The notes under the pieces are model-generated. The model saw nothing but the letters and a program-made list of their open reading frames with translations, was not told the DNA's origin and searched no databases. A program made the translations under genes and the position numbers. A stretch of DNA of 64,000 nucleotides. It comes from Candidatus Aenigmatarchaeota archaeon. Lineage in GTDB: Archaea; Aenigmatarchaeota; Aenigmatarchaeia; Aenigmatarchaeales; Aenigmatarchaeaceae. The DNA lies in NCBI GenBank assembly GCA_043814985.1, contig JBDRJK010000014.1, positions 45,108 to 109,107 of the forward strand, read 5' to 3'. How positions within the stretch are numbered: the stretch's first letter is position 1; each line of letters opens with the position of its first letter. Shown here one piece after another: positions 3,327 to 35,588 of the stretch.

Positions 3327-4353
3327 CTGGCTAAGATACATTTATTGTAAAAACTCTGATAGACACCATGTTAGGTCTATAACTTTGGAAGTCACGACTA
3401 AATGTAACAATAGATGCTTAATGTGCGATATATGGAAATCCAAAGACAAAAATGACATGAAGCTTGAAGATATAGAGAAATTCTTTAAAAACTCAAAGTT
3501 AAGGGATGTCAGAAGTTTTGCCTTCATGGGTGGGGAGACATACCTTTACACCCACTTAGTTGAAGCAACTAGACTACTCAAAAAATATGTACCACATACA
3601 CGCCTTTTCACCTCTTCAAACTGTTATGCTACCGATATTGTTGTCAAAAAAGCAGTTGTGATGAATGAAATTATGCCATTATATTTCTGTGCATCATTAG
3701 ACGGTTTGGAAAAGACCCACAATCACATAAGAGGAGTAAAGGATTCCTACAAACATGTGATGAAAACAATCAAACTTCTAAAAGAAAACGGAATAGACCC
3801 CTTTGTGTCATTTACATTAGTCCCAGAAAATTACAAACAACTAGAAGAAGTTTATAAAAAGGTGAGAAAAATGGGCATTAAGAGCATGAGCTCAAGACCA
3901 GCTTCCTGTGGTGTCTATTTCGATAATTTAGACAAGAAATTTACCTTCACAGATAAACAGAAGGCAGAAATGCTCAAAGAGATGAAAAGAATAGATTATG
4001 GAGGTCATTTCCTGCTTTATGGGTCAGCGGAATTCCTCCAAGGAAGGAGAGTATTGCCTTGTGGCGCAGGCTACTTTTCTTGCTTCATAACCAAAAATTT
4101 CGATGTTTACCCTTGCACACATTGCCCCAAGGATTGGAATATGGGTAATCTAAGAAACTTTAATTTCAACCTAGAAAAACTTCTTGACTCTAAAAAAGCC
4201 AAAAAAATCAGAAGAAAGGTTGATGTATGTAATAGCTGTATTAACGATATGGAATTCTGCGCAACCTACTCTATGCAACAATTCAAAGTTGCCTCCTGGT
4301 TGTTGAGCAGAAAGCCTTTGTCATGGTTCTTTAAACAGCTATTTAAAAAATAA
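3304..4353 (+). CDS. Radical SAM protein with SPASM/twitch domain
   Basis: CNNRCLMC, MGGE, SLDG, C-terminal CGAG...VYPC...CNSC; start codon uncertain (TTG). Confidence 0.88.
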   Translation: MAVKVLFNWLRYIYCKNSDRHHVRSITLEVTTKCNNRCLMCDIWKSKDKNDMKLEDIEKFFKNSKLRDVRSFAFMGGETYLYTHLVEATRLLKKYVPHTRLFTSSNCYATDIVVKKAVVMNEIMPLYFCASLDGLEKTHNHIRGVKDSYKHVMKTIKLLKENGIDPFVSFTLVPENYKQLEEVYKKVRKMGIKSMSSRPASCGVYFDNLDKKFTFTDKQKAEMLKEMKRIDYGGHFLLYGSAEFLQGRRVLPCGAGYFSCFITKNFDVYPCTHCPKDWNMGNLRNFNFNLEKLLDSKKAKKIRRKVDVCNSCINDMEFCATYSMQQFKVASWLLSRKPLSWFFKQLFKK

Positions 4354-32275: not shown

Positions 32276-33241
32276 TTATATCTCAATAATACGTTCTTTT
32301 ATTGCCTGACCGAAATGCGTTGCAACTGGTTCTGAAACATAAGCCTTAACCGAGTCTCCAGGCTTTATTTTGGTTACTGGTATTGAGCCATCAGGAGAAA
32401 CGATTCTTACAGTTTCTGCGTTCTGTGAGCATATGGTGCCTGTCTTATCTCCGTATTGTGCTTTTATGAATATCATTGGCCTCATCTCCTTTTTCAGAAC
32501 CGCCGCATAGGCCTTTCTAGTCTTGCCCTCATAGTTTACAGCTAAGACATCTTCGCAGATTTGGTCCATGGACTTTAAGTCGTCCAGATATTTTGGGGAG
32601 AAGCCATTACCTGAAAATACCTGCGTATACATTCTAGCAGCTCCAGCATTCACCCTCCAATCCCTTTTGTTGACAAAGGGGTTTTCATCAGTCTCAGCAT
32701 CAGGCAAGAACATAAAATCAGTTTTGAAACCAACCAATAATCCTTCCCTCTTCTCAAAAGATGCGATTGTGTCCACACAAACCCTCTTACCTATGTCCGC
32801 TCTTTTGGTTTCAACAACCTCAGCGTTAACCAAGTTAAGTTTAGGAGGGGATTGATAATAAGAACAGAAATCTTCTATCTTTTCTGGGTCGCTCACAACA
32901 AAACCGTCAACGCCCATTTCAAGAGCATTTGCGAGGGCCTTTGAGCCTTCTATATCATTGGTCTTGACTAAAACCTTTGTATTGCTTTTCTGTGTTAGGG
33001 CAATCAGATTTTCAGTTGGTATGGCCTCCCAATCCGTGAAGTTAGCAATTAGATAATTCACACCTTTCAATTTTCTTCCAACAGCCTCTATATCCTCCTG
33101 AGAACTTATTTTAACTTCCTTGTAACCTTTTGGTAAAGTTGGCAGGTTTCCTTTGCTCTGTCCTAGTATTCCAGTGGCATTATATTTTATTACATCATCT
33201 TCCAAGTCTTCTTTTCTACAATCAACCCATATTTCTTTCAT
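32276..33241 (-). CDS. aroB': 3-dehydroquinate synthase II (archaeal AroB')
   Basis: DWEAIPTENLIA, RVCVDT, WRVNAGA, QNAETVR, THFG. Confidence 0.9.
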   Translation of the reverse strand: MKEIWVDCRKEDLEDDVIKYNATGILGQSKGNLPTLPKGYKEVKISSQEDIEAVGRKLKGVNYLIANFTDWEAIPTENLIALTQKSNTKVLVKTNDIEGSKALANALEMGVDGFVVSDPEKIEDFCSYYQSPPKLNLVNAEVVETKRADIGKRVCVDTIASFEKREGLLVGFKTDFMFLPDAETDENPFVNKRDWRVNAGAARMYTQVFSGNGFSPKYLDDLKSMDQICEDVLAVNYEGKTRKAYAAVLKKEMRPMIFIKAQYGDKTGTICSQNAETVRIVSPDGSIPVTKIKPGDSVKAYVSEPVATHFGQAIKERIIEI

Positions 33242-33273: not shown

Positions 33274-34122
33274 TTATCTCATATATTTTACTAGGGCCTT
33301 TTCAACAGTCAATCCCTCATGAACAATCCCACACATTGTTCTTACCATGGCAGTTGGATTTTCATGTTGGAATGTATTCCTTCCTATTGAGAGACCAGCA
33401 CCACCGGCCTGTATTGAACCGTAGACAATATCCAAAAATTCTTTTTCTGAATCTGTTTTTGGACCGCCTGCTATCACAACTGGAACAGGACAACCTTCAG
33501 TAACTTCTCTGAATGAATCTACAGAACCAGTATAGTTGGTTTTAATTATGTTCGCACCCAATTCAGCCCCAAGACGTGCAGCATGGCTGACAGCTTCAAC
33601 AATAAATTGATAATCTTTCTTACCTTTTAATTCATATCTCTTATCTAAATCTTCCTTTAATTTTAGCCCCCTTGGATACATCATTGCAAGTAAAGGCATT
33701 TCCCATTCATTACATATTTTTGATGTTTCACCAAGATATTTTAATTGCTGTGCCTCAGTCTCAGAGCCCATATTCACATGAACAGAAACAGCATCAGCCC
33801 CATATTTTATGGCTTCTTCCACAGTTGCTACTGGCACTTTATTATCTGGATCTGGCCCCCATTTAGTACTTGCTGACATATGCATTATAAGCCCGATATC
33901 TTTTCCAGAGCCTTCAGAACCTCTGTAGCCAGCTTCTATAATACCTTTATGTGTTATTACAGCATTCGCCCCTCCCATTGCAGCTGCATCAATTGCTTGT
34001 GACATATTCTTGAGACCTTTTATAGGTCCTTCTGACACTCCATGATCCATAGGAACTATTACAGTCTTTCCGCTCTTCCTATCAAATATCCTGTCCATTC
34101 TGATTTGTTTTCCAATACCCAT
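33274..34122 (-). CDS. aroA': 2-amino-3,7-dideoxy-D-threo-hept-6-ulosonate synthase (AroA', DhnA-type aldolase)
   Basis: PMDHG, MYPRG, IIKTNY, AGGPK, GRNTFQ; adjacent to aroB'; ATG 34122 preferred. Confidence 0.85.
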
Positions 34123-34192
34123 AAGATTACCTATCAAACAATTGAACAGAAAGCTTTAAATCCCTTTTTTTCCAATTAATTTTGTTGGTTAA

Positions 34193-34246
34193 ATGAGAAG
34201 CAGACTCTACTTCAAGTATACACAGTATTTCTTTACATTTATGTAG
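34193..34246 (+). CDS. Putative leader peptide MRSRLYFKYTQYFFTFM
   Basis: Read directly; 3 Tyr + 4 Phe in 17 aa; stop 46 nt before the aspartate kinase ATG. Confidence 0.7.
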   Translation: MRSRLYFKYTQYFFTFM

Positions 34247-34248
34247 AG

Positions 34249-34289
34249 TCAACACTTTTCTTCTCAACTCTTCTGAAAAAAGGTGTTGA
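34249..34289 (+). promoter_or_regulatory. Hairpin sequestering the aspartate kinase Shine-Dalgarno
   Basis: TCAACACTTTTCTTC (34249-34263) pairs with GAAAAAAGGTGTTGA (34275-34289), 14/15 pairs incl. one G-U; contains AGGTG 34281-34285. Confidence 0.7.
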
Positions 34290-34292
34290 ATA

Positions 34293-35588
34293 ATGACAAT
34301 AGTTCATAAATTCGGTGGCGGCATAATAAGAGACGGAAGCGGTCTTGCAGACATAGAAATGGTTACTAGAAGCTATGATGTTCCGCAACTAATTGTTGTT
34401 TCTGCCCTGAAAGGTGTTACAAATGAATTAAGAGAATATTTGGAAAGAGACGAACCCAACATTGCCAGAAGCACTATAGTAAATTATGCCCTTACTGGAA
34501 GAGACTGGATTAAAGGCAATAATGAACGCGATTCATTTCTCAGAAAATTAAAAGATTTACAAGAAGAATTGCTAGACCCAGAGTTAAAAGTTGATGAAGT
34601 CCTATCTTTCGGAGAAAGGCTCTCCACAGAATTTTGTTATCATGCCCTAAAATCTAGGGGAATAGATGTAGGTAAAGTCAATTATGATAGATACCATCCT
34701 CTCGATTTCTCAATCATCTGTTCTGAACATAAAGAGGATGCTGATCCAATACTTGAAAAAACAAAAAACAATTTTGGCTTAGTAAAAGAAAAGATGGAAG
34801 AGCATGATGTAGTTGTTTTGCCAGGCTTTATTGGGGTAACTGAACTAGGTGAATTGAGAACATTGGGTAGGGGCGGTTCGGATACCACTGCTCTAGCTTC
34901 TGCTTATGCATTAGATGTAAATGAAGTTAATCTATGGAAAGATACAAAGGGAGTAAGAACAGCTGACCCGGGAATAGTTAAAAATACTAGATTAATACCT
35001 CACATTTCATATTCGGAAGCAAACAATATGACCAAGTCTGGGGCAAAGATAGTGCAGCACAAATCATCCAAACTTGCTGAAGAAACCGGAATCAAAATGA
35101 GAATACCTTATATTAAGGATTCAAGTATTTTCACTGTTATTAATGGTGAAAGGAGAGCAGAAGAGCCTCTGGTAAAGTATGTTGGAGGGACCGACAGTGC
35201 AAAAATGATATCATGTAGTTTTGACGAATTTCTTGAAATAAGAGAAGAATGCCAAAAGCAAAACCAACAGGACGATTTTTTTATACTTCATGGAAACTAC
35301 AACAATTTAAGAGTCTTGATTTTGAATAATAAAAATAATATCCACAAAGGCAAAAAAGTTGGTGTGGCTACTTTGGTTGGTGACAGATTAAAAGAAACAA
35401 AGGGTGTATTAGAAAGAGCTTCTCACCAATTGAGGGAACAGAAAATAAATATTATTGACTATGGTAGTGGTGGTGAGGAAGAATTGTACATGTCTTTTAT
35501 ATTGAAAGATACTCTTACAAAACCCTCAATAAGAGCATTACACAAGAAATTCATAGAGGAAGACACATTCTGGAAGAACAGAAATTAA
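34293..35588 (+). CDS. lysC: Aspartate kinase
   Basis: HKFGG, VVSA, SFGERLS, PGFIG, TLGRGGSDTTA, TADP; ACT-like C-terminus. Confidence 0.9.
   Translation: MTIVHKFGGGIIRDGSGLADIEMVTRSYDVPQLIVVSALKGVTNELREYLERDEPNIARSTIVNYALTGRDWIKGNNERDSFLRKLKDLQEELLDPELKVDEVLSFGERLSTEFCYHALKSRGIDVGKVNYDRYHPLDFSIICSEHKEDADPILEKTKNNFGLVKEKMEEHDVVVLPGFIGVTELGELRTLGRGGSDTTALASAYALDVNEVNLWKDTKGVRTADPGIVKNTRLIPHISYSEANNMTKSGAKIVQHKSSKLAEETGIKMRIPYIKDSSIFTVINGERRAEEPLVKYVGGTDSAKMISCSFDEFLEIREECQKQNQQDDFFILHGNYNNLRVLILNNKNNIHKGKKVGVATLVGDRLKETKGVLERASHQLREQKINIIDYGSGGEEELYMSFILKDTLTKPSIRALHKKFIEEDTFWKNRN

Follow-up and report, generated by a model that had tools for sequence, protein, structure and literature searches.

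A short open reading frame (ORF) rich in Phe and Tyr codons lies just before an aspartate-kinase-like gene of a Candidatus Aenigmatarchaeota archaeon, and a hairpin beyond its stop codon buries the Shine–Dalgarno (SD) sequence of the kinase. We tentatively read this region as a ribosome-gated, cis-acting translational leader of the kinase mRNA that is tuned by the aromatic codons, in a direction that can be argued either way. The locus lies in a 64,000-nt stretch (45108–109107) of contig JBDRJK010000014.1 (the window; coordinates of all features in Table 1), where the kinase gene faces away from aroA′ and aroB′. A preliminary description of this DNA had proposed a leader that senses Tyr, Phe, Thr, Lys and Met through alternative hairpins. 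Our analysis retains its ORF and its SD hairpin, and departs from it on which amino acids could be sensed and on how the competing fold would act.

To place the ORF relative to the transcript, we used a promoter model, a position weight matrix derived from the host's own leaderless genes (188 genes with a TATA hexamer 27–31 nt before the ATG). The profile of these genes comprises an A-rich transcription factor B recognition element (BRE) at −35 to −32, TTTTAAA at −30 to −24, AAA at −11 to −9 and T at −1. The best plus-strand match predicted a transcription start site (TSS) at 34184/34185, and a weaker T-rich match pointed to 34193–5. Between 34200 and 34292, the scan gave no plus-strand match scoring above 3.3. 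The main predicted start thus lies upstream of 34193, inside the limit on which the preliminary description depended, and the 17-codon mini-ORF would be the first cistron of a kinase leader of about 109 nt. Its predicted 5′ geometry is the same as that of 24 called genes with a predicted start 9–10 nt before the ATG, whose leaders open with a mini-SD, GGUG or AGUGA. The host has two promoter-to-start geometries in all, a large leaderless class and this smaller class with a 9–10-nt leader. On the minus strand, promoter matches predicted an aroA′ TSS at 34131/2 (score 5.2, 99.35th percentile), and in this model the single TTTAAA suggests a shared bidirectional TATA for the aroA′ and kinase transcripts. 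A search of 33900–34500 against Rfam returned six weak cmscan matches (E up to 10), none near its gathering score (the best, a fungal snoRNA, had 22.5 versus 40 bits).

The codon bias of the mini-ORF is aromatic, not multivalent. Tyr, Phe, Lys, Thr and Met do account for 11 of its last 12 residues, as first described, the sole exception being Gln. Of the 16 codons that follow the ATG, seven encode Phe or Tyr (binomial P = 4e-4, against a background of 9.8% in the host's 840 small intergenic ATG-ORFs), whereas the Thr, Lys and Met codons that a multivalent sensor would need number two, one and one (4/16) and are at background (P = 0.19). When the 48 nt of the mini-ORF were shuffled 20,000 times, by mono- or dinucleotides, a fraction of about 3e-4 reached seven Phe/Tyr codons, so AT-richness or local base composition, a caveat raised at the outset, does not account for the bias. 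By Phe/Tyr content the mini-ORF ranked 6th among the 840 small intergenic ORFs and 2nd among the 407 with 14–25 codons; six aromatic residues in ten were attained by 8 of the 840. The host's asd and prephenate dehydratase genes had no leader ORF upstream.

The SD hairpin was recovered as it had been drawn, with 34249–34263 against 34275–34289. Positions 34249–34259 pair with 34279–34289 (11 bp, one G-U) and 34261–34263 with 34275–34277, which leaves GGTG wholly paired; 7 nt separate GGTG from the kinase ATG at 34293. Compared with equivalent regions of the genome, the fold of the −48 to +3 region before the kinase ranked 9th of 832 gene-upstream windows and 3rd of 185 SD-bearing genes. In the ribosome-free leader the SD was unpaired with a probability of 0.03.

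The competing structure of the preliminary description survives in part. Both of its helices exist and are perfect (34194–34200/34260–34266, 7/7; 34203–34210/34243–34250, 8/8), and together they form the minimum free energy (MFE) structure of 34193–34270 alone (−16.6 kcal/mol). For nascent, ribosome-free RNA extending to 34282, the MFE structure (−17.6 kcal/mol) consists of the 8-bp helix and a register-shifted 7-bp helix. What the analysis does not support is a release of the SD by this structure on stalling. In the full leader it is 4 kcal/mol less stable than the sequestered fold (−19.1 kcal/mol with both helices enforced versus an MFE of −23.1 kcal/mol; findpath barrier about 11 kcal/mol), and the 8-bp helix is itself compatible with the SD hairpin (−21.8 kcal/mol). 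The competing 5′ arms are codons 1–6 of the mini-ORF, so any translating ribosome removes the competing fold.

An independent parallel comes from a second kinase locus, which carries a comparable ORF. The kinase is rare in the phylum, with matches at E ≤ 1e-20 in 17 of 371 genomes (best match 39% identical), and aroB′ was found in 5 of 371; the two genomes that combine the kinase with aroA′/aroB′ are the host (G000) and G127. G127 has a single operon, AK-asd-aroA′-aroB′-aroD-aroE-aroK (AK, aspartate kinase; L031:3490–9712, C3), an arrangement which shows that kinases of this type are devoted to aromatic biosynthesis in the lineage. In the intergenic region of about 300 nt before it, strong promoter matches predicted starts at 3527 and 3537/8; the leader would span roughly 190 nt. 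The predicted first cistron is a Trp/Tyr/Phe-rich 22-codon ORF (MTIVHRTQAITWQYFYSFSYGQ, 3548–3616), with a TSS 10–11 nt before its ATG and six aromatic residues in nine positions, Trp included (P = 0.01 in shuffles); the leader fold had z = −2.3. A second small ORF in G127 (3694–3768) overlaps the GTG start of the kinase by 40 nt, and the first ORF begins MTIVH, as does the window's kinase.

First-cistron ORFs with at least six aromatic residues per 10-residue window thus occur at 2/2 kinase-aroA′/aroB′ loci. At the 15 other kinase loci, no upstream ATG-ORF had more than four aromatic residues per 10-residue window; this count omits L002 (kinase start unplaceable), L015 (same place as L031) and L004 (31% identity over 94 residues). 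A ratio of 2/2 aro-linked kinases to 0/15 others with an aromatic leader is suggestive, though the sample is small and its genomes are related. Two sets of upstream ORFs were set aside as leaders: MDDFISDFFK-type small ORFs before three other kinases are not leaders but the C-terminal end of the upstream gene, and the 20-codon ORF upstream of aroB′ in G102 has only two aromatic residues.

In the mechanism that we favour, free ribosomes would be unable to start on the kinase with the hairpin closed. Once at the final codon or the stop, a ribosome translating the mini-ORF would cover the 5′ arm of the hairpin, which would then open. The run of Phe/Tyr codons would tie the arrival and dwell of that ribosome to charged tRNA-Phe and tRNA-Tyr, and kinase output would thereby be coupled to the aromatic branch fed by the neighbouring aroA′/aroB′. 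The link to the AroA′/AroB′ route, already drawn in the preliminary description, is supported by aroA′ as the divergent neighbour and by the G127 kinase at the head of a full aro operon, but the pathway map behind it is not shown in the host.

Several results weigh against a leader that reports on aromatic amino acids, and the most direct came from folding under ribosome constraints. We masked 28 nt at each A-site position of the mini-ORF and refolded the leader, a purely equilibrium calculation. Whichever Phe/Tyr codon occupied the A site, the SD was unpaired with a probability of 0.00–0.08. The probability reached 0.24–0.26 only when Met17 or the stop was in the A site, where the ribosome lies over the 5′ arm of the hairpin. 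The anti-SD arm (34249–34263) is past the stop: an A site at the last Phe codon (34238) takes the mask only to about 34250, and one at the stop takes it to 34256, with a rise of the probability from 0.03 to 0.26. In this model the last codon or stop thus frees the SD in part, and no Phe/Tyr stall does; the geometry therefore fits neither trp-type nor mycobacterial Cys-type logic. Moreover, the 125-nt fold of the leader as a whole is no more stable than shuffled sequence (z = −1.1). The host has five other small ORFs that are equally or more Phe/Tyr-rich, none of them before an evidently aromatic-related gene, so chance examples exist. In the G127 leader, the same masked folding gave no clear switch (one SD coordinate was misplaced).

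The pathway content of the host points the same way. Its genome (808 kb in 21 contigs, about 39% G+C, 91% complete) has asd (TIGR00978, 334 bits versus a 301 cut-off) and a homoserine dehydrogenase gene. Family searches did not find aroD (type I dehydroquinase), aroE, SKI-type shikimate kinase, 5-enolpyruvylshikimate-3-phosphate (EPSP) synthase, chorismate synthase or dihydrodipicolinate synthase (DHDPS); each of these pathway searches gave matches in 7–14 control genomes. In a 91%-complete genome, such genes are "not found" and not "absent". With the shikimate steps past dehydroquinate not found, Phe and Tyr may not be products of the AroA′/AroB′ route in this host. The preliminary map, in which the kinase serves Thr, Met and Lys (through diaminopimelate, DAP) as well as the aromatic amino acids, is in the same position, with DHDPS and the post-dehydroquinate steps not found. 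Prephenate dehydratase, as a stand-alone protein that lacks an ACT domain, is encoded in two near-duplicate copies (C4:1204–1893 and C8:2481–3167), each beside a DNA methylase gene. Kinase, asd, aroA′, aroB′ and prephenate dehydratase give a patchy picture of the aromatic pathway, its middle steps being among those not found.

Sequence variation at the locus adds a further reservation. Contigs from X2, X3 and X5 are identical to the window over the parts covered (that from X3, a second study, covers 34059–34363). The contig from X4, a third study, with about 91% identity, has 14 differences in 34202–34354, which match the N-terminus of the kinase relative P0002 (MKIVN...). None of the listed differences falls in 34233–34289 (Fisher P = 0.001) and six fall in 34290–34322; eight unlisted differences, at most 31 nt from the piece ends, are unplaceable. 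P0002 (70% identical to the window's kinase overall) is near-identical to it in the C-terminal half and strongly diverged over residues ~13–200, and by this pattern looks like a recombination mosaic within the gene. With a mosaic kinase, the identity of X4 across 34233–34289 may reflect recombination and not selection, and we did not count it as evidence of selection.

Much of this would be accounted for by a real hairpin brake on the kinase with the mini-ORF as, at most, a generic unlocking cistron, its Phe/Tyr richness incidental and no amino acid sensed. We consider this main rival rather unlikely, though a serious contender. The hairpin ranks among the top 1% in the host genome, and like SD hairpins occur at its ordinary operon junctions. 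Of seven strong-hairpin windows inspected, five were SD-bearing, and four of these five were operon junctions with the upstream cistron overlapping or abutting the start. With strong SD hairpins mostly at operon junctions, the host genome shows a pattern in which a ribosome coming from upstream unlocks the SD, and the arrangement fits that expected for translational coupling. The most stable SD hairpins lie before the gene starts C19:65143, C15:39074, C19:110144 and C8:19094 (coding-strand indexing), with junction spacings of −8 to +1 nt. A generic brake also agrees with the modelled opening by a terminating ribosome only, with the equally Phe/Tyr-rich ORFs before unrelated genes and with the downstream shikimate genes not found. 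It leaves the Phe+Tyr excess without a cause (P ~3e-4 given local composition), and likewise the aromatic-rich first cistron at a second, unrelated kinase-aro locus when 15 other kinase loci have none.

The direction in which an aromatic-tuned leader would act can be argued both ways. Equilibrium folding predicts that early stalls would give less kinase, the reverse of classical attenuation. By analogy with known bacterial cases, and by pathway logic, early stalls would give more kinase. We put the odds of the two at roughly even.

Other kinases of the phylum also have leaders. All five kinase-bearing genomes of the f38 family share a conserved kinase leader of about 150 nt (L016, L017, L020, L021 and L023:1325–1515). 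In each (5/5), a TATA box lies 29 nt before the ATG of a 15–17-codon ORF, and the predicted TSS is at most 1 nt from this ATG, that is, leaderless. The ORFs (MMCPSVARMKKTKRF, MSMPTVMMTKKTKLML, MRTSSMHKTKKTMGY, MEFPAMMTEKAKRTYC and MTVPCSIMTKKTKLFML) have a Lys/Thr core (TKKTK and variants). In the RNAalifold consensus (32 pairs, nine of them with changes on both sides), the 5′ part of the ORF pairs with GGUC...CUGGGG, and CCUCCCCAG with the SD. Each single-sequence fold pairs CUGGGG with CCCCAG instead; a CCUCCCC:SD helix is also part of the leader. In this modelled four-segment layout (A:B, B:C, C:D), a Lys/Thr stall would free the SD and starvation would induce the kinase. Footprint-masked folding was mixed, with the SD opening up at Lys/Thr codons in L023, L016 and L020 and not in L017 or L021. 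The Lys/Thr core is conserved at the nucleotide level too, so sensing in f38 is not proven; even so, these leaders make ribosome-read kinase leaders in the phylum plausible. The window resembles them in the enzyme downstream, in a first-cistron ORF of 15–17 codons placed by a TATA box and in an anti-SD:SD helix. It differs in having no sequence similarity to them, Phe/Tyr in place of Lys/Thr core codons, and three segments (the middle two merged) against four with a coherent stall-to-ON model.

That the mini-ORF and hairpin arose by chance in AT-rich intergenic DNA, with the kinase controlled elsewhere or not at all, seems improbable to us. A reader of 64 kb chose the residue set and the helices post hoc, the fold of the whole leader (z = −1.1) would agree with chance, and among 840 small intergenic ORFs a few extreme ones are expected. 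The coincidence required is nevertheless an unlikely one, of an SD hairpin and a Phe/Tyr ORF that are each in the top 1%, a well-placed strong promoter and an aro-linked gene, and G127 offers a parallel.

Hungry codons could in principle act by another route, which we regard as quite improbable. With tRNA-Phe scarce, peptidyl-tRNA-Phe on UUC (34229) would slip −1 onto UUU; the ribosome would bypass the TAG, read through the hairpin in the −1 frame, stop at the TAA overlapping the kinase AUG and hand over to the kinase, which would be ON. The −1 frame is indeed open from 34180 to a TAA at 34291–34293 that overlaps the kinase ATG (TAATG), and U-UUC-UUU (34228–34234) is the only site in the mini-ORF that permits perfect re-pairing of the P-site tRNA in −1. 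Such a switch would yield the expected starvation-to-ON logic. An open −1 frame of this kind is ordinary, however (6.3% of shuffles; 25 of the 238 genes whose upstream DNA is gene-free), and two Tyr and two Phe codons follow in the −1 frame soon past the shift site. In G127 the +1 frame likewise skips the stop of the leader ORF and terminates 4 nt short of the next ATG, but the shift direction there differs. If true, the leader would be an archaeal amino-acid sensor based on a programmed change of reading frame in place of alternative hairpins.

Very unlikely is the idea that the inverted repeats are not RNA helices but DNA operators for a transcription factor at the shared aroA′/kinase bidirectional promoter: perfect 7- and 8-bp inverted repeats and the 11-bp one do lie directly downstream of the shared TATA, and protein regulators are common at archaeal amino-acid genes, but the half-sites are an unusual 32 and 59 nt apart, the 11-bp helix has a G-U pair (a mismatch in DNA) and covers exactly the SD, and no regulator gene is adjacent among the annotated neighbours.

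Leader ORFs through which ribosomes read out the supply of an amino acid are textbook devices of bacteria, with pheL-pheA and trpL as the enterobacterial leader-peptide transcription attenuators. Like these, the window combines alternative RNA helices with a leader peptide that has an aromatic codon run and precedes a biosynthetic gene. Unlike them, its second helix hides an SD, and the layout of its helices does not let a stall promote the open form. The region is not a trp- or phe-type transcription attenuator, as no terminator hairpin with a U-run was found; GAAUAAUG comes after the 3′ helix. Hairpin terminators are not known to serve archaeal RNA polymerase as they do the bacterial enzyme, and a bacterial sigma-70/terminator scan of 33900–34500, which is not informative for an archaeon, gave no terminator-like sites.

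Of the systems described so far, the closest is the polycysteine leaderless short ORF of mycobacteria. Ribosomes stalled on such ORFs (the Cys "ribulon") are reported to interfere with the duplex in which the next gene's SD is hidden (Canestrari et al., bioRxiv 10.1101/834739). The window shares with that account a short ORF predicted as first cistron at the 5′ end of the transcript, a richness in codons for amino acids that may be tied to the genes downstream, and an SD held in an RNA duplex; control would fall on translation and not on termination. The mycobacterial Cys codons, as described there, themselves pair with the SD region and a stall frees it, whereas the anti-SD arm of the window comes after the stop; moreover, the window's organism is archaeal, and its ORF has a predicted 8–9-nt leader and is not strictly leaderless.

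Two further comparisons concern how a hairpin is opened. In ermC/cat-type translational attenuation, antibiotics are sensed via nascent-peptide arrest (10.1101/834739). The window similarly has a leader ORF beside an SD-sequestering hairpin that a suitably parked ribosome would open, but the ermC/cat stall site is inside or right before the hairpin arm, and in the window only the final codon or stop is near enough. Translational coupling by a ribosome-binding-site (RBS) hairpin that an upstream cistron opens (the subject of the review PMC12548453) is matched by the buried SD and by an upstream frame that ends within ribosome reach of the hairpin. The window differs from it in that its upstream cistron is a biased ORF of 17 codons and is separated from the start by a stop–start gap of 47 nt, with no overlap.

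A full-text literature search, outside which most subscription journals fall, found no amino-acid-sensing leader ORFs in archaea. Haloferax and Methanosarcina ribosome-profiling papers go no further than to remark that 5′ untranslated region (5′-UTR) small ORFs are reminiscent of such leaders and might function likewise. If the window, G127 and f38 leaders work as read here, DPANN archaea with 0.8-Mb genomes would gate the entry enzyme of the aspartate family by charged-tRNA sensing, with the sensed amino acid matched to the branch that the kinase serves. This would also offer a testable reason for the kinase's loss of clear ACT regulatory domains. The idea is not proven, and the main value of the locus is as one of few concrete archaeal places to test it.

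Table 1 Features of the kinase leader and its neighbours in the window
Feature	Position	Strand	Basis or remark
Best plus-strand promoter match, CAGAAAGCTTTAAATC (A-rich BRE-like stretch and TATA)	34147..34162	+	Score 7.5, 99.9th percentile of genome positions
Palindromic TATA core TTTAAA, likely bidirectional	34155..34160	.	38 nt from mini-ORF ATG (34193) and 38 nt from aroA′ ATG (34122)
Predicted kinase mRNA 5′ leader, ~109 nt	34184..34292	+	Predicted by promoter model
17-codon mini-ORF, MRSRLYFKYTQYFFTFM + TAG (34244–34246); predicted first cistron, 8–9 nt from predicted 5′ end (GUUGGUUAA-AUG)	34193..34246	+	Sequence and promoter model
SD-sequestering hairpin (11 bp + 3 bp), starts 3 nt past mini-ORF stop	34249..34289	+	−13.6 kcal/mol
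Kinase SD GGTG, starting 11 nt before ATG	34282..34285	+	Inside genome-wide SD peak, −13 to −9
Competing fold, 5′ arms: TGAGAAG 34194–34200 and GACTCTAC 34203–34210, in mini-ORF codons 1–6	34194..34210	+	Helix search
Competing fold, 3′ arms: GTAGAGTC 34243–34250 and CTTCTCA 34260–34266	34243..34266	+	Overlap hairpin 5′ arm at 34249–50 and 34261–63
−1 frame relative to mini-ORF, stop-free for 35 codons, ending in TAA	34186..34293	+	Relevant to frameshift reading alone
Aspartate-kinase-like gene, 431 aa	34293..35588	+	PF00696, 1e-33; TIGR00657, 200 bits, just below 208.7 cut-off
aroA′ (2-amino-3,7-dideoxy-D-threo-hept-6-ulosonate synthase; ADH synthase), divergent neighbour of kinase	33274..34122	−	TIGR01949, 333 bits versus 299 cut-off
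aroB′ (3-dehydroquinate synthase II family)	32276..33241	−	PF01959, 5.6e-71

The genes around the leader run in the order tyrS (+), aroB′ (−), aroA′ (−), a 170-nt intergenic region, aspartate kinase (+), 2-hydroxyacid dehydrogenase and serS. For an ACT domain in the kinase, we obtained a weak, sub-threshold ACT_9 match alone (23 bits versus a 27-bit cut-off). The aroB′ product scored below the cut-off of every NCBIfam equivalog. The closest named relative of the kinase is an Aenigmatarchaeota metagenome-assembled genome (MAG) protein, and the relatives P0002 (ENA), P0003 (NCBI, Aenigmatarchaeota MAG), P0004 (Logan) and P0005 (JGI) are 70–45% identical to the window's kinase. A scan of genome contigs matched the kinase only at four Chloroflexi loci (29–32% identity), with no aroA′/aroB′ nearby; metagenome contigs (queried with alignment A1, then P0005) and viral contigs gave no kinase match.

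The kinase was not found in three same-genus genomes. One same-genus genome, G001, has only a 188-codon frame (G001:C2:9530–9895, L030), which resembles the C-terminal third of dehydroquinate synthase II and may be the remnant of a lost aroB′; tblastn at 1e-5 gave no synteny between G001 and the window. Two f14 genomes share an 11-codon ORF (MLFWELPALKN, L010:1202–1237; MLFWGLPAPKN, L011:1268–1303) about 200–250 nt upstream of their kinase.

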